Source of the DNA: Candidatus Oxydemutatoraceae bacterium
GTDB taxonomy: Bacteria > Pseudomonadota > Gammaproteobacteria > Poriferisulfidales > Oxydemutatoraceae
Assembly (NCBI GenBank): GCA_965219575.1
Contig: OZ244779.1
Location: 716,769 to 780,768, forward strand
Length of the DNA: 64,000 nucleotides
Direction of reading: 5' to 3'
Position 1 is the stretch's first letter; each line of letters starts with the position of its first letter. Shown in pieces: positions 22,662-30,396 of this stretch. The position numbers and the translations under genes are program-made. The notes beneath the pieces are model-generated. The model was not told the origin of the DNA. It saw only the letters and a list, made by a program, of their open reading frames with translations, and searched no databases.

Positions 22662-23945
22662 CTATCGTACGAGTGGCGACCATGAAATCCCCCTGATATT
22701 ATCGGCTTCTATCTGAATCAGTTTTCCTAATGCCCCGTCTATGGTTAGCAATCCGAGTGCAGACTCACCGTCTTGGGTTGTGATATAGCTTAATAGATGT
22801 CCGTTGGGCGCAAAACGAGGTCTTTCGTCTAGGTTACCGAAACTCAAAGCAAGTTCGCTATCGTCGATTAGATCGCGTATGACTACGGAAAATCCGGCAC
22901 CGCGCTCGCTGATATAAGCGAGCTTGGTTTGATCGGGCGAGACATCGGCATCGGCGTTGTAGTTCCCCTCGAAACTTAGACGCGTAATATCATTGTCCGC
23001 AATCGATGCCCGATACAGTTGTGGTGTGCCGCTGCGGTCCGAGGTAAAGATCAAGGCATCGTTACCCATCCAAGCGGGCTCCGTATCTATTGCCAGACTT
23101 CGGGTTACCCTTATAATTCTTTGGGTGTCGAAGCGGTAGATATAAATATCGGAGTTGTCGTTGCGCGAAGCGACAAAACTTAATTGATTGTTATCTTCGG
23201 ACCAAGCAGGCGTGTTGGCAGGACCTATTATTTCGGATAGATTGCTACGCTCGCCACTGCTCAATACCTGTATGAATATCTGTGGTTCGTTGTTCTCGTA
23301 AGAGACATAAGCAAGGTTTTTGTAATCGGGCGACCACGCCGGCGACATCAGTGTCGCGTCTGCGGAATAAATGGCCGAGACATATTGTCCGTCGGCATCC
23401 GCTATGTTCAGGTTAAATCTTCGTTCTTTGGGACCCAGCCTCTCCGAACTGACAAATGCCAGTCGGGTACTGAAAATTCCCGCCACACCGGCAATTTCCT
23501 CATAGATCAAATCACTTGCATAGTGTGCAATGGTTTTGATTAGATTATCCTCAAGGCTTAATTTCCATTCCTTCGATTTAGTCGCTTTGACGGCATCGTC
23601 TAGGCGAACAATCAGAGCATCGTCGTCGACGGTACCCGATACTATTTTTTCGGCACCGTTTGTCAACCAAGCCTCGTAGTCGGTCGTATCGTTCGGGCGA
23701 GTCAGTTGGGAAAAGTTTTGTGCGTCTAAGATACTGAATAAGCCACTGTACGCTAGATTGGATGCGATAATTTGACTGTAGTTGCGAGGCACGTCTTGAG
23801 GTTCTCCCGTAAACGGCAGTATTGTAATCGGAACCCCACCGATCACACCTTCGGTGATTTCTATTTTTAATTCGGCTTGCGCGGTTGCAAAAGCGAACAG
23901 TAATGTCAGCAGGCTCGCTATACTATGTAGTATACGCATAATCAA
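22662..23945 (-). CDS. tolB: Tol-Pal beta-propeller protein TolB
   Basis: LKIEITEG, GIFSTRLAFV, MSPAWSPD, FTSDRSGTPQLY. Confidence 0.95.
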   Translation of the reverse strand: MIMRILHSIASLLTLLFAFATAQAELKIEITEGVIGGVPITILPFTGEPQDVPRNYSQIIASNLAYSGLFSILDAQNFSQLTRPNDTTDYEAWLTNGAEKIVSGTVDDDALIVRLDDAVKATKSKEWKLSLEDNLIKTIAHYASDLIYEEIAGVAGIFSTRLAFVSSERLGPKERRFNLNIADADGQYVSAIYSADATLMSPAWSPDYKNLAYVSYENNEPQIFIQVLSSGERSNLSEIIGPANTPAWSEDNNQLSFVASRNDNSDIYIYRFDTQRIIRVTRSLAIDTEPAWMGNDALIFTSDRSGTPQLYRASIADNDITRLSFEGNYNADADVSPDQTKLAYISERGAGFSVVIRDLIDDSELALSFGNLDERPRFAPNGHLLSYITTQDGESALGLLTIDGALGKLIQIEADNIRGISWSPLVR

Positions 23946-24982
23946 TAGTCCCTCTTAAAGGTAAATTCAATTTCCGAGTCAAACACTTCCGGTGAGGGTG
24001 CCGTCGGAAGCGGGTCGGCTTTCCATACCGCTGCTTCAACCGAGCGTACGAATAATTTATCGCCTTCGCAGCGTAAGAAGTCGACATTCAGTATTGCACC
24101 CGTTTCATTTTGACGTATCTTGAGTACACATTTGCCACCTTCGACACTGGTGGGAGGTTTCTTCCAATGCTGCTCTACGCTACTGCGAATCATCTGCTCG
24201 TATTGCCGTTGCCAAATTGCAATTTGGTTCTTGCGCATTTTTAATCGTTCGGCTTCTTCTTTTTTTCTATGCTCTGCCAAGCGTCGTTGCTCTTCTTCCC
24301 GCTGTCTCTTTTTCTCTTCCTCCAGGCGTTTCTTCTCCTCCGCTATGCGTTTTTGCTCTTCTTCCAGCCTTTTTTTCTCTTCTGCCATGCGTCTTTGTTC
24401 TTCCTCCAGTTGTCTTTGTTTCTCCTCTGCTATGCGCCTTTGTTCCTCCTCCAGTTGTCTTTGTTTCTCCTCTGCTATGCGTCTTTGTTCTTCTTCCAGC
24501 TGTTTCCTTTTCTCTTCGGCTAAACGTTCTTGCTCTTTGCGTTCTTGTTCCGCTTCCTCCTTACGCCTCAGTTCGGCTTGCCGCTGCTTTTCTTTCTCTT
24601 CCACACGCAGTTGTTCTAGTCGAGCTTCTTCCTGTTTTTTCTTTTCTTCTTGTAATTTCTTTTGCCTTAACAACTCCGCTTTTTTTCTTTCTTCGGCTAA
24701 ACGTTGCGCCTGTTTTTGTCGCTCTTTTTCAAGTTGCAGTGCGCGTTCTCTCGCCAATGCTTGTTGTTGTTTTTGTTCGTAATAGGTATTCACTTCCTCC
24801 TGTGTGATGACTTCCGCCTCTATCGATTCCATCGGCGGTGGCGGTGACTGTGTCGCCAAAGAGACAGGTCCGGCACAGGTTTTCAGGGAAATTGTGATCG
24901 TGAAAAAAAATATAAGATGTAGCAGTACGGAAAAAACCGTAGAACTTAAATATAAACCGCGCTGTTTGCGCATCGTAGTCAC
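23942..24982 (-). CDS. tolA: Cell envelope integrity protein TolA
   Basis: N-terminal TM, long E/K/R-rich repeats (EEEQRRIAEEKQRQL), C-terminal domain SVEAAVWKADPLP. Confidence 0.92.
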   Translation of the reverse strand: MTTMRKQRGLYLSSTVFSVLLHLIFFFTITISLKTCAGPVSLATQSPPPPMESIEAEVITQEEVNTYYEQKQQQALARERALQLEKERQKQAQRLAEERKKAELLRQKKLQEEKKKQEEARLEQLRVEEKEKQRQAELRRKEEAEQERKEQERLAEEKRKQLEEEQRRIAEEKQRQLEEEQRRIAEEKQRQLEEEQRRMAEEKKRLEEEQKRIAEEKKRLEEEKKRQREEEQRRLAEHRKKEEAERLKMRKNQIAIWQRQYEQMIRSSVEQHWKKPPTSVEGGKCVLKIRQNETGAILNVDFLRCEGDKLFVRSVEAAVWKADPLPTAPSPEVFDSEIEFTFKRDY

Positions 24983-25408: not shown

Positions 25409-26092
25409 TCATTCCGAAGTGTTTTTATGTAAAGCCTGACGATGTAATATCGCAGTAAACTCCTCTATAAAATTATCGTAGCGCGAGATCAATAAATTGC
25501 TATGCTCGCTGAAACGATTGTATGCAACCACTGCGGGAATTGCTGCAAATAAACCTAGTGCGGTTGCCACTAAGGCTTCGGCAATCCCCGGTGCAACCAA
25601 AGAGAGCGTTGCTTGTTGCACATCTTGCAATGCGAGAAAGGCGTGCATAATGCCCCAAACAGTACCGAACAGACCTATATACGGCGAGGTAGAAGCCACC
25701 ACCGATAAAAAGTTCAAGTGTTTATTCCAACTATCGACCTCTCTGGACAACGCAACCTTCATGGAACGCACCGCAGTATCCGCAATGGCAAGCGGTGATA
25801 ACGAACCCTGTTTGTGCAAGCGTATATATTCGTCGAACCCGGTGTGAAATATTTTTGCCATGCCGCTTTGTTCATGAATGTCGATCTCCTTGTAAAGTTC
25901 GCTCAGCTCCATGCCCGACCAAAAACGCTCCTCAAATTGAATAGCCTGTCTCCTTATATGCCGAAACTCGCGCCACTTTGCAATAATTGCACTCCAACTC
26001 AAAACCGAAGCTATGATCAATACGAGCAAAACCAGCTGCACGATGAAAGTCGCATCGCTAATCAATGAGAAGAAGCCAATTTCAGATTGCAT
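25409..26092 (-). CDS. tolQ: TolQ
   Basis: FEERFWSG, SPYIGLFGTVWGIM, VAPGIAEALVATALGLFAAIPAV. Confidence 0.96.
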   Translation of the reverse strand: MQSEIGFFSLISDATFIVQLVLLVLIIASVLSWSAIIAKWREFRHIRRQAIQFEERFWSGMELSELYKEIDIHEQSGMAKIFHTGFDEYIRLHKQGSLSPLAIADTAVRSMKVALSREVDSWNKHLNFLSVVASTSPYIGLFGTVWGIMHAFLALQDVQQATLSLVAPGIAEALVATALGLFAAIPAVVAYNRFSEHSNLLISRYDNFIEEFTAILHRQALHKNTSE

Positions 26093-26312
26093 TTCTTAAT
26101 TCTCCATAAAGTCTGACAGATATTAATACCGAATATCACAGGCTAGACATCTAAATAAACTTAAATTATAGGTACTCCAACTGCCTATAATACCCTATTC
26201 TGCATGATTGACAATGTAGCATTGTCCGAATTGGAGTTAGTGTAGTCGCTTCCAATCACCCTAAATGCACAAGCGTCTAAGGTCAATGCGAGTTTGAGAT
26301 TTACCGAAAAGA

Positions 26313-27362
26313 TCAAAACAGGCTCTGTTTGGAGGTTTCGGCTTGTGGTGTGGAAGGAGGCACTCGATAACCTAGATGTCGGTATGCCGATCGGGTTGCC
26401 AATCGGCCGCGTGCGGTACGGATTAAAAATCCACTTTGTATTAAAAAGGGTTCTATCACATCCTCGACGGTGCCGCGCTCCTCGCTAATCGCTGCCGCTA
26501 AGCTGTCTATGCCGACCGGACCTCCCGAAAATTTTTCTATGATCGTTTCCAGTAGTTTGCGGTCCATCGAGTCAAAACCGTGTGTGTCCACACTGAGCAT
26601 ATCGAGTGCCTTATCGGCAATCGGTTGATCGATGACTCCGTCGGCTTTGACCTGCGCGTAATCGCGTACCCTACGCAGCAAGCGATTGGCAATACGCGGC
26701 GTACCGCGCGAACGGCGGGCAATTTCAAAGGTGCCTGCTTTGTCTATGGTTACATCGAGTATATTTGCACTACGTTTTACGATTTGTGCGAGTTCTTCGT
26801 TTTGGTAAAAGTCCAGCCGCTGAGTTATGCCGAAGCGGTCTCGCAGAGGTGAAGTGAGCAGACCGGCGCGTGTTGTTGCTCCGACTAAGGTAAACGGTGG
26901 CAACTCAAGTTTAATCGAGCGTGCTGCCGGCCCTTCGCCGATAACGATATCCAGCTGAAAATCTTCCATTGCAGGATAGAGTATTTCTTCTATGGCAGGA
27001 TTGAGGCGGTGGATCTCGTCTATAAACAATACCTCTTTGGGTTCCAAGTTGGTCAATAGGGCGGCGAGGTCGCCGGCTCTTTCTAAAATCGGCCCGGCGG
27101 TTTGTCGAATTTTGACATCCATTTCGTTGGCGACAATATGCGCGAGCGTTGTTTTGCCTAAACCGGGAGGTCCGAAGATTAATACATGGTCTAATGCGTC
27201 GCCTCGTTCTTTAGCCGCCGAGATAAATATATCCATCTGTTCTTTGACCGAGGATTGTCCTATATAGTCTTTTAATCGACGAGGACGCACATCGTCGTCA
27301 ATTTGTTTTTCTTCGTCTATCGGGTCGCCGCGCAATAACGATTTGTTCGTTTCTGTATCCAT
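26313..27362 (-). CDS. ruvB: Holliday junction branch migration helicase RuvB (intact)
   Basis: [42 protein letters not shown]-terminal winged helix (GGPVG..EPFLIQ). Confidence 0.98.
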
Positions 27363-28957
27363 TGTTCAAGTGTATAGTATCATTTAGGCTTTTAATCGTA
27401 GTGCTTCGCGGATAATCTCTTCCACCGTTTTGCCTTTGGTGTCCACCTTTTTAATCAGACTTTTTGCTTCGCCGGATTTGTAGCCGAGTGCGATTAAAGC
27501 CCCGGATGCAGCTTGCGATTGGTCGCTACGAGCGTCGGTCGCGGTTGCAGCGGAACTTTGCCAAAACTCGTCCTTAAAGCGATCCTTCATCTCGACAATC
27601 AGTCGTTGTGCCGTTTTCACACCTATCCCGGGCAAATCGGACAATGCGCCTACATCTTCGTTTTCTATCGATTGTCTGAATATATCCTCTTCCATGCCGG
27701 AGAGAATTGCCAGTGCCATTTTAGCATCGACACCGCGCACCTTGCGCAATTCTTTGAACAAGGGTTTATTGAGTATATCAAGTGCCCTCTCTGCAATCAT
27801 CTGATCGATGATTCCGTCGGCTTTGACCTGTGCGTAATTGCGTACCCTACGAAGCAGGTGTTTGGCGATACGCGGCCTGCCGCGTGAACGGCGGGCAATT
27901 TCAAAGGCACCTGCTTTGTCTATAGCCACATTAAGTATATTTGCATGGCGTTTTACGATTTGCGCGAGTTCTCCTTTTTGGTAAAAGTCCAGCCGCAGGG
28001 TTATGCCGAAGCGGTCTCGCAAAGGTAAAGTACGCAAACGGTTGCGCCAACGGTTGAGTGTTGTTCCCCCGACTAAGGTGAATGGTGGCAACTCGAGTTT
28101 AATCGAGCGTGATGCCGGACCTTCGCCGATAACGATATCCAACTGAAAATCCTTCATTGCAGGGTAGAGTATTTCTTCTATGGCAGGATTGAGGCGGTGA
28201 ATCTCGTCTATAAACAATATCTCTTTGGGTTCTAAGTTGGTCAGTAGGGCGGCGAGGTCGCCGGCTCTCTCTAAAATGTAGCCGTCGGTTTGCCGAATTT
28301 TAACATCTATTTCGTTGGCGATAATATGTGCGAGCGTTGTTTTGCCTAAACCGGGATGCCCGACAATTAATACATGGTCTAATGCGTCGCCCCGTTCTTT
28401 AGCTGCCGAGATAAATATATCCATCTGTTCTTTGACCGAAGATTGTCCTATATAGTCTTTTAATCGATGAGGACGCACATCGTCGTCAATTTGTTTTTCT
28501 TCGGCTATCGGGTCGCCGCGCAATAACGAGTTGTTCGTCTCTTCATCCATCGTTCGAGTGTATCGTATTATCTAGGCTTTTAATCGTAGTGCTTCGCGGA
28601 TAATCTCTTCTACCGTTTTACCTTTGGTGTCCACCTTTTTAATCAGACTTTTTGCTTCGCCGGATTTATAGCCGAGTGCGATTAAAGCCCCGGATGCAGC
28701 TTGCGATTGGTCGCTGTGGGAGGCGGTAGCGGTGGTAACGGAACTTTGCCAAAACTCGTCCTTAAAGCGATCCTTCATCTCGACGATCAATCGCTGTGCC
28801 GTTTTCACACCAATCCCCGGCAAATCGGACAATGCGCCTACATCTTCGTTTTCTATGGATTGTCTGAATATATCCGCTTCCATGCTGGACAAAATTGCCA
28901 GTGCCATTTTAGCACCGACACCGCGCACCTTGAGCAATTCTTTGAACAAGGCTTTAT
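26594..28957. repeat. Diverged tandem duplication (copy A 26594-27769, copy B 27770-28957)
   Basis: ruvA 3' part + intergenic + ruvB 5' part occurs twice with a 1188-bp offset (1176 beyond a 12-bp indel); intergenic spacers are also similar. Confidence 0.92.
27384..28550 (-). CDS. Chimeric RuvB(~1-256)-RuvA(~68-195) fusion protein
   Basis: Residues ~1-260 align to the neighbouring RuvB, and the remainder ([11 protein letters not shown]...EALRLKA) to the neighbouring RuvA; single uninterrupted 388-aa ORF. Confidence 0.9.
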
Positions 28958-29159
28958 CGTATTCGTTGATAAAGGCGTATAGGGTATGCGCATCTTCGCG
29001 CACAATCAGATGGGTTAATACGACAACCGGCGTACCCACCTCGGGAAGTTTGTAAAAAGTCGACATCGGGGCTTGCAGTTCGTATGTGAGACCATTGACT
29101 TCAATCAATAGATAGGGTGGTGATTTTAGAATGAGTTCACCACTTAGCCGAGCAATCAT
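28572..29159 (-). CDS. ruvA: Holliday junction branch migration protein RuvA (intact)
   Basis: MIARLSG, THLIVREDA, HhH motifs VRGVGAK and [11 protein letters not shown], domain [11 protein letters not shown]. Confidence 0.97.
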   Translation of the reverse strand: MIARLSGELILKSPPYLLIEVNGLTYELQAPMSTFYKLPEVGTPVVVLTHLIVREDAHTLYAFINEYDKALFKELLKVRGVGAKMALAILSSMEADIFRQSIENEDVGALSDLPGIGVKTAQRLIVEMKDRFKDEFWQSSVTTATASHSDQSQAASGALIALGYKSGEAKSLIKKVDTKGKTVEEIIREALRLKA

Positions 29160-29653
29160 TGGCGTAGTTTAGGTATTCCGTCGGATGGTGTTACGAAAGC
29201 ATGGCATAAAGCAATCGCGAGTGCATCGCTTTCGTCGTTTTGGTCTCGCTCGGCAATGCTAAGCAATCGGCACGCCATGTATTTGACTTGTCTTTTATCG
29301 GCGGCACCGTTGCCGGTAATGGTCTTTTTAACAAAACGCGCACTGTATTCATGCACCGCAAGTCCGGCCTTAACACCGGCGCAAATCGCAACGCCGCGTG
29401 CTTGTCCTAATTTGAGTGCCGAGTCGGCATTTTTTGACATGAACACCTTTTCTACTATCATCATCGAGGGTTGATAAGTCTCTATAATGTCGGCGACACC
29501 GTCGTAGATCGTAGCCAGCCGTTCCACGGAATTTAACGAGGCGGTATTAATTTGACCGCTGGCAATATAACGGTTCGTATGCCCGTCGCTTTCTATAATC
29601 GAATAACCGGTGGATATCGAACCGGGATCTATACCTAAAATACGCTGCATCAT
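29156..29653 (-). CDS. ruvC: Holliday junction resolvase RuvC
   Basis: ILGIDPGS, EKVF..NADSALKLGQARG, DESDALAIALCH; start moved to the ATG overlapping the yebC stop. Confidence 0.96.
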   Translation of the reverse strand: MMQRILGIDPGSISTGYSIIESDGHTNRYIASGQINTASLNSVERLATIYDGVADIIETYQPSMMIVEKVFMSKNADSALKLGQARGVAICAGVKAGLAVHEYSARFVKKTITGNGAADKRQVKYMACRLLSIAERDQNDESDALAIALCHAFVTPSDGIPKLRQ

Positions 29654-30396
29654 TAATCTGCTTCCCGGTTCACGACCGAGTCTGCAAAACTCGCATTGCA
29701 ATAGATATTCTGTACATCGTCGCAGTCCTCCAGTGCTTCCAAAAGACGCAGTAATTTACCACTATCGTTTTCGTCCAACGGCACTAAATTTGTAGGGCGC
29801 ATTTCTATCTCGGCAGAATCCGGTTCCATGCCCGAGCTTGTCATTGCCTGCTTGAGTTGCAGTAGATTTTCGGGATTTGTCAAAACTTCTATATGATTTT
29901 CGCTTTCTATATCTTTTGCGCCGGCTCGTGTTGCAGCGTCTAAAATCGCTTCCTCGTTCGCACCTGCAGGGTAGCTTAACACGCCGCACTGCTTGAACAA
30001 ATAGGAAACCGATCCCGAGGTTCCTAAATTACCGCCGAATCGAGTAAAAGCGTGTCGTATTTCGGATACACTTCGGTTTTTATTATCGGTGGTACACTCT
30101 ACCAATACGGCAACACCACCGGGACCGTAACCTTCGTAGCTGATATTTTCATAGATTGCGCCTTCTATTTCTCCGCTACCGCGTTTGACGGCACGCGCAA
30201 TGCTATCTTTCGGCATATTTGCAGCGAGTGCTTTGTCTATTGCGAGACGCAATCTAGGGTTGCTCTCCGGGTTTGCGTCTCCCATGCGCGCAGCGACGGT
30301 GATTTCACGGATCAGACGAGTAAATAATTTACCTCGTTTGGCATCTTGTGCTTTTTTCCGGTGTTGTATATTTGCCCATTTGCTATGCCCTGCCAT
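29653..30396 (-). CDS. yebC: YebC/PmpR family protein
   Basis: MAGHSKWANIQHRK, YEGYGPGGVA, TDNKNR. Confidence 0.96.
   Translation of the reverse strand: MAGHSKWANIQHRKKAQDAKRGKLFTRLIREITVAARMGDANPESNPRLRLAIDKALAANMPKDSIARAVKRGSGEIEGAIYENISYEGYGPGGVAVLVECTTDNKNRSVSEIRHAFTRFGGNLGTSGSVSYLFKQCGVLSYPAGANEEAILDAATRAGAKDIESENHIEVLTNPENLLQLKQAMTSSGMEPDSAEIEMRPTNLVPLDENDSGKLLRLLEALEDCDDVQNIYCNASFADSVVNREAD

Follow-up and report, generated by a model that had tools for sequence, protein, structure and literature searches.

A RuvB-RuvA chimeric gene at a tandem-duplication junction between ruvA and ruvB in an uncultured gammaproteobacterium, possibly retained as an accessory component of RuvAB

What is the role, if any, of a third gene that lies between ruvA and ruvB and is built from parts of both? 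This question is raised by a 64,000-nucleotide (nt) stretch of contig OZ244779.1 from an uncultured gammaproteobacterium (assembly GCA_965219575.1), hereafter the window. According to its list of open reading frames (ORFs), a run of minus-strand genes comprises a yebC-like gene, ruvC, ruvA, a chimera of 388 residues, and ruvB, followed by tolQ, tolR, and tolA. The genome consists of a single 2.37-Mb contig (98.9% complete) with exactly two RuvB-like places, ruvB itself and the chimera. RuvAB is a textbook machine, and its two subunits are thought to be invariant partners. The pattern of substitutions and retained surfaces described below suggests, with a probability that we place near 0.5, that selection has retained the chimera as an accessory subunit of RuvAB, or a modulator of it, with no DNA binding of its own.

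The chimera, its component parts, its parents, and the repeat units were located as follows.

27384..28550, minus strand: chimeric ORF, 388 residues (P0001), free of stop codons and frameshifts (ORFs, Pfam, BLASTP)
27768..28550, minus strand: RuvB-derived part of the chimera, codons 1-261 (Pfam, BLASTP, alignment)
27384..27767, minus strand: RuvA-derived part of the chimera, codons 262-388 plus stop (BLASTP, alignment)
27766..27771, minus strand: duplication junction, with the crossover in 2 nt of microhomology (DNA alignment; contigs of four public runs)
28032..28058, minus strand: remodeled loop extending from sensor 1 to the Arg finger (alignment; stem 28047-28032)
28551..28571, minus strand: 21-nt spacer preceding the chimera, copied from the ruvA-ruvB spacer and differing from it at four positions (alignment columns 1-21)
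28572..29159, minus strand: ruvA, intact, 195 residues (P0003), with RuvA_N, HHH_5, and RuvA_C (ORFs, Pfam)
26313..27362, minus strand: ruvB, intact, 349 residues (P0002), with RuvB_N, AAA_lid_4, and RuvB_C (ORFs, Pfam)
27770..28957, no strand: repeat unit 2, 1188 nt, with ruvA codons ~68-195, a 21-nt spacer, and the RuvB-derived 5' part of the chimera (repeats, alignments)
26594..27769, no strand: repeat unit 1, 1176 nt, with the 3' part of the chimera (derived from RuvA), then a 21-nt spacer and ruvB codons 1-256 (repeats, alignments)

Two families of direct repeats were detected, one at 26594-26870 and 27770-28046 (85% identity, spacing of 1176) and the other at 26855-27154 and 28043-28342 (89% identity, spacing of 1188). 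They combine into two head-to-tail units of 1176 and 1188 nt, the difference in length being a 12-nt insertion. DNA alignments showed that the duplicated segment contains the 3' two-thirds of ruvA (28572-28957, inside repeat unit 2), the 21-nt spacer, and the 5' three-quarters of ruvB. The locus possesses the marks of a junction chimera: two head-to-tail units, a single new in-frame join, and both parents intact. A sequence-only reading had proposed the order ruvC-ruvA-chimera-ruvB with undamaged parents, which agrees with the ORF list and with the full Pfam sets of both parents, and a tandem duplication of ~1.18 kb, the coordinates of which match the repeat units exactly. Its in-frame join at a domain boundary also stands, but the residues (RuvB ~1-256 and RuvA ~68-195) required correction. 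The join fuses RuvB 1-257, which carries a 4-residue insert, to RuvA 69-195, because the Asn before the junction was ancestrally that of RuvB (G001, G003, and G004 read MLN followed by VD). The spacer upstream of the chimera is a copy of the ruvA-ruvB spacer, and the chimera therefore starts behind the translation-start region of ruvB. A scan gave 6 promoter-like sites (6.6 ± 2.6 in shuffled sequences) and 11 terminator-like sites (6.0 ± 2.4), with no convincing site of either kind between the genes.

By BLASTP, chimera residues 1-261 were 85% identical to RuvB 1-257 with a single 4-residue gap, and residues 261-388 were 91% identical to RuvA 68-195. The Pfam domains occurred in the order RuvB_N (PF05496, residues 25-187, full profile, E = 1.4e-70), AAA_lid_4 (PF17864, residues 190-260, E = 4.9e-27), HHH_5 (residues 265-323, E = 2.6e-12), and RuvA_C (PF07499, residues 350-386, E = 6e-10). 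Pfam gave no match in the chimera to the RuvB_C head, or winged-helix, domain (PF05491), for which the RuvB of the same genome scores 9.4e-25, or to RuvA_N (PF01330), for which its RuvA scores 4e-21. These results bear out the proposal that the winged helix of RuvB was replaced by the helix-hairpin-helix (HhH) region and domain III of RuvA, with loss of the tetramerization domain. The chimera contains the cores of Walker A (GHPGLGKT), Walker B (DEIH), and sensor 1, together with the presensor-1 hairpin, the Arg finger, and the sensor 2 Arg. The hairpin, which is the dock for RuvA domain III, has been kept with one change (A147S). HhH motif 1 reads GVDAK rather than GVGAK, at a Gly that is invariant in 18 of 18 aligned RuvA rows, whereas HhH motif 2 (PGIGVKTA) is intact. 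Domain III (residues 345-388) is identical to that of the inferred ancestral RuvA. The sole indel, a 12-nt in-frame insertion already recognized at RAGLLTS in the stop-free ORF, was evident in the alignment as codons 165-168 (LNRW). It looks like a tandem duplicate, since diverged, of the 12 nt that follow (RNRL). Substitutions clustered close to it form a 6-bp quasi-palindrome at 28047-28032, a pattern that recalls template-switch mutation. An AlphaFold2 model of the chimera had a mean predicted local distance difference test (pLDDT) score of 70.4 and a predicted template modeling score of 0.53, with pLDDT values below 50 at residues 162-185. A control model of genuine RuvB 1-256, built from an equally shallow alignment, fared no better, its pLDDT values falling below 50 at 129-174 and 176-182, and the models are therefore uninformative about the insertion.

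How such a protein could influence RuvAB is suggested by the parent machine. According to PMC9477746, the large and small ATPase domains hold the RuvB ring together, four C-terminal head-domain arginines from four RuvB subunits in a staircase hold the DNA, and RuvA domain III docks on helix α3 and the presensor-1 hairpin of RuvB, where it drives nucleotide exchange and hydrolysis. PMC10272136 describes binding of the junction by RuvA domains I and II as a tetramer. A tandem duplication of ~1.18 kb within ruvA and ruvB joined the ATPase core of RuvB (large and small domains) to domain II of RuvA with the linker and domain III, and we propose that selection has retained the new gene. The resulting protein would keep every protein-protein surface of RuvAB, i.e., the ring interfaces, the presensor-1 hairpin, and its own tethered domain III, and its DNA-gripping surfaces would be lost or damaged (no RuvB head, no RuvA domain I, and Gly to Asp in HhH motif 1). 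The gene is presumably co-transcribed with ruvA and ruvB. By one route, the chimera would enter RuvB rings as a subunit unable to hold DNA and, in this species, also unable to activate its neighbor fully. By a second route, its tethered domain III would occupy or cap the hairpins of RuvB. Either or both routes could tune or attenuate branch migration and fork reversal. We infer that the chimera is expressed and that it binds, and likewise the sign of its effect. A search of public sequencing runs listed no RNA dataset containing the sequence, which speaks neither for nor against expression. The earlier suggestion of a RuvAB modulator or inhibitor fits the data, and so does that of a young gene in transition.

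Selection on the chimera was assessed from the ratio of nonsynonymous to synonymous change (dN/dS, or ω), obtained by Nei-Gojobori-type counting rather than from a codon model. In pairwise comparison with its parent, the RuvB half gave 0.25 and the RuvA half gave 0.23. When the differences were polarized by parsimony with the orthologs of four congeneric species (G003, G001, G004, and G002), the chimera branch exhibited 24 synonymous and 33 nonsynonymous changes in the RuvB half (ω = 0.43) and 7 synonymous and 9 nonsynonymous changes in the RuvA half (ω = 0.38), compared to ω values of 0.10 and 0.15 on the parental ruvB and ruvA branches, respectively. Thus dN/dS, proposed earlier as a check on each half, was not near 1 in either half by either approach. 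In a neutral simulation (20,000 runs, with 74 substitutions consisting of 50 transitions and 24 transversions placed at random on the inferred ancestor), 50.6 ± 3.8 codons acquired amino acid changes, compared to the 37 observed (P = 0.00025). The chimera does not resemble a pseudogene, as it has no stop codon or frameshift and has fewer changes than the neutral simulation. The constraint was evident in the core extending from Walker A to Walker B (residues 25-121, ω = 0.24, P = 0.003) and in helix α3 plus the presensor-1 hairpin (residues 122-160, ω = 0.15, P = 0.03), and the HhH domain gave ω = 0.34 (P = 0.07). The contrast between the interfaces (hairpin and domain III) and the remainder of the chimera was not significant (Fisher P = 0.39). 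A special constraint on RuvA domain III, for which the pairwise ω was 0.07, was considered and dropped when no changes of any kind remained after polarizing. Judged from these substitution patterns, purifying selection has acted on the chimera during at least a considerable part of its history, although relaxed by a factor of three to four compared with that on the parents.

The genome provides a separate argument for retention by selection. It holds recA and mutS, and 90% of the window is coding. While it is young, a perfect tandem repeat of 1.2 kb in a recombination-proficient genome should collapse long before its copies could diverge by 11-15%, unless selection opposes the loss. The collapse expected in this compact genome has not taken place, and retention of the repeat therefore points to selection independently of the ω values.

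A second chimera emerged when the full-length chimera was compared with 5.8 billion proteins by a word-indexed search. Among the best 120 of 8000 scored matches, P0004 was the only other protein to span both halves (459 residues, 74% identity, 96% coverage), and the same 2.61-Mb contig encodes an ordinary RuvB (P0008) of another species. A RuvA search found none on that contig (2,610,925 nt) among its best 120 matches. When chimera residues 215-325 were used as the query, the only junction-spanning proteins among the best 120 of 332 matches were P0001 and P0004. P0004 joins RuvB to RuvA at the same residue pair as the chimera of the window (ALDMLN followed by KALYKEL) and has the same domain order as P0001: RuvB_N, AAA_lid_4, HHH_5, and RuvA_C. 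The two proteins also have changes in common. Both carry Gly to Asp at the identical position of HhH motif 1; both have altered the invariant A/S-G-P loop after strand β2, to DGY in one and EGH in the other; both have insertions in the loop after sensor 1 (four residues in the chimera of the window and two in P0004); and both are altered just before the sensor 2 Arg, where Thr has become Arg in one and a Gly has been lost in the other. In neither chimera does an indel break the reading frame within the segments that align with RuvB and RuvA. The number of shared changed positions was 7 versus 3.1 expected (P = 0.02, a modest statistic), and within invariant columns it was 4 versus 1.7 expected (P = 0.08).

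Other searches defined how widely the chimera is distributed. When 1.84 billion cluster representatives were searched, the chimera was its own representative, and a Pfam scan found the order RuvB-then-RuvA in none of the 14 multi-stretch matches among the best 150 representatives. Those 14 were internal RuvB_N duplications, natural-order RuvA-RuvB fusions, intein-bearing RuvB, and an unrelated multi-AAA protein. Three RuvB-like proteins from other metagenomic assemblies (P0361, P0362, and P0363; 476-1230 residues) have two RuvB_N matches each and represent internal or tandem duplications of the ATPase domain, and an 846-residue RuvB (P0454) carries an intein splicing domain within RuvB_N. A search of genome contigs for related loci returned at least 80 ordinary ruvA-ruvB loci. 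The family was represented by 19 genomes, a set that does not include the genome of P0004. All other family genomes have ruvA and ruvB, which are directly adjacent in G001-G004 and adjacent, separated by an unrelated insert, or at distant places in the others. In a neighboring genus (G010, G013, and G016) the ruvA-ruvB gap is 0.9-1.8 kb, and the gap in G013 (L010, 530-1500) holds an unrelated 192-residue ORF with a hydrophobic tail rich in Gly and Ala. Long frames at ruvB in genus g7 (536-542 residues) were considered as RuvA-RuvB fusions and rejected: in L021, ruvA lies in another frame, overlapping a spurious frame of high guanine-plus-cytosine content. Two RuvB proteins of close relatives, P0005 (292 residues) and P0011 (285 residues), end inside the head domain and have no RuvB_C match; the tail of P0005 is apparently frameshifted, and both may reflect sequencing errors or truncated genes.

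Several observations weigh against retention of the chimera by selection, and most of them suit an account in which the gene is a decaying relic. In this account the duplication was fixed by drift or hitch-hiking, the unneeded junction ORF is still open for lack of time, and the low ω reflects early constraint or chance; we consider it a serious contender, though at odds well below even. The ω of the chimera is 3-4 times that of the parents, and the values in the lid (0.65) and in the segment between sensor 1 and the Arg finger (1.5) are indistinguishable from neutral, although the changes in the latter are clustered, so that a few complex events may have been counted as many. Domain III, which had no changes of any kind on the chimera branch, is uninformative about selection. 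The chance of remaining free of stop codons after 74 random substitutions was 0.12, which is not small, and an intact frame alone is therefore weak evidence. The sequence-only reading had described the functional motifs as retained, which holds for their cores; the motifs nevertheless carry radical changes at residues that are invariant or nearly so in 21 orthologs, i.e., P65H in the Walker A loop, A89D, P91Y, E133K, and T225R, which adjoins sensor 2, together with the remodeled loop before the Arg finger. Of the 31 positions at which the chimera differs from the RuvB of its own genome, 20 are columns invariant in 19 orthologous RuvB sequences. E133 probably corresponds to the trans-acting Glu128 described in PMC9477746, as judged by its spacing to the Arg finger, by alignment with 9dx3_A, and by a constant offset of 3 for the Glu, the Asp, the Arg finger, and the sensor 2 Arg; if so, E133K would alter a trans-acting catalytic residue in the copy of the window. 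P0004 keeps Glu at this position. The chimera was not found in any of the four congeneric species (G001-G004) or in the 14 other family genomes searched, and it is thus dispensable or often lost. Finally, P0004 lacks the N-terminus of RuvB and a start codon of its own, its ORF reading in from an upstream C-terminal fragment of RuvA, and such a protein could be found only as an open frame, which is an ascertainment bias.

The relic account is opposed by the deficit of amino acid changes in the simulation (P = 0.00025), by the persistence of the same junction in a second species, and by the absence of any out-of-frame indel in the aligned parts of the two chimeras. A useless 1.2-kb tandem repeat should, moreover, be deleted from so compact and recombination-proficient a genome, yet the junction was present in all four sequencing runs described below. 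If the chimera were a relic after all, it would show how long a junction ORF can stay open in such a genome.

Whether the chimeras of the window and of P0004 arose once or twice was also considered. A protein tree built on the ATPase core placed P0004 with P0008 (90% support) and the chimera of the window with G000/G003 (84%), and the mutual identity of the two chimeras is only 76%. Such grouping by genome is compatible with a separate duplication in each lineage and also with a single old duplication after which the parents donated sequence by gene conversion. We clearly favor a single origin on three grounds: both joins connect the same two residues despite a microhomology of just 2 nt, the invariant glycine of HhH motif 1 has undergone the identical change to Asp, and the informative sites of the window form a mosaic. 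At seven of these sites the chimera groups with the ruvB of G000, and at four, including a double change at nt 751-752, the ruvB of G000 groups with that of G003 and the chimera is ancestral. The DNA tree dates the duplication, or the last conversion, near the split between G000 and G003. One origin requires at least two losses (one in G003 and one in G001 plus G004), which would occur easily, as unequal crossing-over between the units brings back a plain ruvA-ruvB pair and leaves no scar. These features suggest that the chimera is an older gene evolving in concert with its parents, and they tell against its earlier description as a young one-off.

The opposite view, that each species underwent its own recent duplication and the gene is young in both, draws on the grouping of each RuvB half with the RuvB of its own genome and on the 76% identity. 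We regard it as unlikely, since chance would almost never repeat the same join in 2 nt of microhomology, the same Gly to Asp change occurs at an invariant glycine, and mosaic sites are the pattern left by gene conversion after an older duplication; were it true, the parallel changes would argue still more strongly for selection. Building on a single origin, a more ambitious version of the accessory-subunit reading, which we offer tentatively and as less likely than not, is that the chimera could be an old third RuvAB subunit at the level of the genus. It would have arisen once before the species of the window and of P0004 split, would have been long selected and homogenized by conversion, and would serve as a brake or adaptor on branch migration and fork reversal. 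In this version, the diagnostic changes that abolish DNA contact (Gly to Asp in HhH motif 1, the acidic loop after β2, and the remodeled loop after sensor 1) would have persisted, and the gene would have been lost repeatedly by repeat collapse.

A self-loading DNA motor, another function first suggested from the sequence alone, fares much worse. Autonomous rings of the chimera would have to grip and translocate DNA through the HhH region of RuvA in place of the RuvB winged helix. In favor of such a motor, the chimera has the Walker A Lys and Thr, Walker B, sensor 1, the Arg finger, the sensor 2 Arg, and an intact HhH motif 2. The DNA staircase, however, is built by the four head-domain arginines described in PMC9477746, and these are missing from the chimera, as is RuvA domain I, which according to PMC10272136 is required for tetrameric binding of the junction. 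Both chimeras also combine the Gly to Asp change in HhH motif 1 with acidic substitutions in the loop after strand β2, and the copy of the window has E133K at what is probably the trans-acting catalytic residue. An autonomous motor is thus very improbable.

Public sequencing data were used to examine whether the tandem repeat is real. Logan contigs from four runs of four studies were placed on window positions 25800-29800, in which the only sequence unique to the duplicated form is the junction near 27770. The junction was bridged without a single difference in all four runs, by contigs covering 27639-28194 in X1 and X4, 27668-28194 in X6, and 27680-27926 in X7. The depth of the junction piece was 365 in X1 (flanks of 379 and 372), 34 in X4 (27 and 33), and 50 in X6 (60 and 59), while X7 was too shallow for a comparison of depth. 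This equality with single-copy flanks in X1, X4, and X6 indicates that essentially every genome copy there carries the junction. The organism in X6 is a different strain, with 40 differences in 943 nt of ruvC, yet its junction piece is identical. One run may be the source of the assembly itself, and therefore at least three runs are independent. The duplication is not an assembly artifact. A spurious tandem repeat, produced by merging reads from two co-occurring strains, is hardly credible. The genome does seem to be a metagenome-derived assembly in one contig, a type of assembly in which repeats can be misjoined, but short-read contigs of four studies bridge the junction exactly and at single-copy depth in the three deeper runs, the extra copy is unlike the RuvB or RuvA of any relative and has unique changes at invariant sites, and the same junction occurs in an independent assembly (P0004). 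Two oddities were noted among the contigs. In X4, one low-depth contig (3.3, with a side of 29 nt) links 26990 with 28312, a join that does not match the register of the repeat, and loose ends occur alongside it at 26962, 27119, 27158, and 28346; the contig most probably represents ruvB of another organism in the same metagenome. In X1, a 284-nt record at 27385-27668 with nine differences is probably a misplaced copy of ruvA.

Compared with known systems, the chimera is built of two well-known families by a well-known mechanism. Its residues 1-261 form the same large plus small ATPase module as RuvB, the AAA+ motor of Holliday-junction branch migration (PDB 7PBL, 9DX3, and 1HQC), and match 9dx3_A with E = 1e-92. 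The chimera differs from RuvB in lacking the RuvB_C head, a DNA-binding domain according to PMC9477746, and in having the 4-residue insertion and clustered changes before the Arg finger. Residues 262-388 form the same domain II, linker, and domain III as the Holliday-junction binding protein RuvA (PDB 1BDX and 1CUK), but HhH motif 1 reads GVDAK and RuvA_N (domain I) is absent, so that the known RuvA tetramer cannot form. Natural-order RuvA-RuvB fusions from metagenomes (P0123, P0124, P0397, P0399, P0412, P0444, P0474, P0495, and P0496) likewise have both parts in one frame; in these, however, the RuvA part is N-terminal, and none has RuvB_N followed by HHH_5 or RuvA_C. P0123 and P0124 lie on contigs of ~2.5 kb, P0474 and P0495 appear to end at a contig edge, and the fusions look like read-through, deletions, or truncated calls. 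P0474 and P0495 are of the reciprocal kind, with RuvA_N (with or without HHH_5) directly on the RuvB ATPase core and with RuvA domain III and the N-terminus of RuvB missing.

Older in vitro work with the Escherichia coli and Thermus thermophilus proteins reportedly used isolated RuvA domain III and a "mini-RuvA", and the detached domain III is said to still contact RuvB. The chimera similarly offers domain III on a flexible linker, but those constructs are laboratory fragments, whereas here the domain belongs to a natural gene product and is joined to an ATPase core resembling that of RuvB. In the innovation-amplification-divergence view, new bacterial genes are born as chimeras at tandem-duplication junctions. 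The locus resembles that scheme in its two units, one new junction ORF, intact parents, and an ω in the new copy that is raised but below neutral. Among the listings and abstracts returned by full-text literature searching, we found no description of a RuvB-RuvA chimera and no natural bacterial gene that fuses two interacting subunits of a single machine, a class that appears to be undescribed. The sequence-only reading had not recognized the architecture as a described one; the domain-architecture search beyond this genome, with one other junction-spanning protein (P0004) among the matches listed and no chimera in G001-G004 or the 14 other family genomes, accords with that statement. If the accessory-subunit reading is correct, a constrained protein that joins the RuvB core to RuvA domain III and lacks the two modules that bind DNA would serve as a naturally occurring regulator, or "poison subunit", of branch migration and as a ready-made probe of how RuvA domain III drives the nucleotide cycle of RuvB. 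The locus also represents a rare, datable bacterial gene born at a tandem-duplication junction and apparently evolving in concert with its parents.

The first gene in the ruv run and a gene downstream of it yielded minor observations.

29156..29701, minus strand: ruvC, crossover junction endonuclease (ORF list; orthologous ORFs in G001-G004)

The listed ruvC frame begins at a TTG codon (29701) and overlaps the yebC-like ORF (29653-30396) by 49 nt. The actual start is probably the Met of MMQRILGIDPG, ~16 codons inward, because the conserved N-terminus of RuvC begins ~16 codons after the listed start. Downstream of tolQ and tolR, a TolA-like ORF (window positions 23942-24982, minus strand) has a long, repetitive middle rich in Glu, Lys, Arg, and Gln with repeats of the EEQRRIAEEKQRQL type, and the opposite strand of this repeat carries spurious long ORFs.

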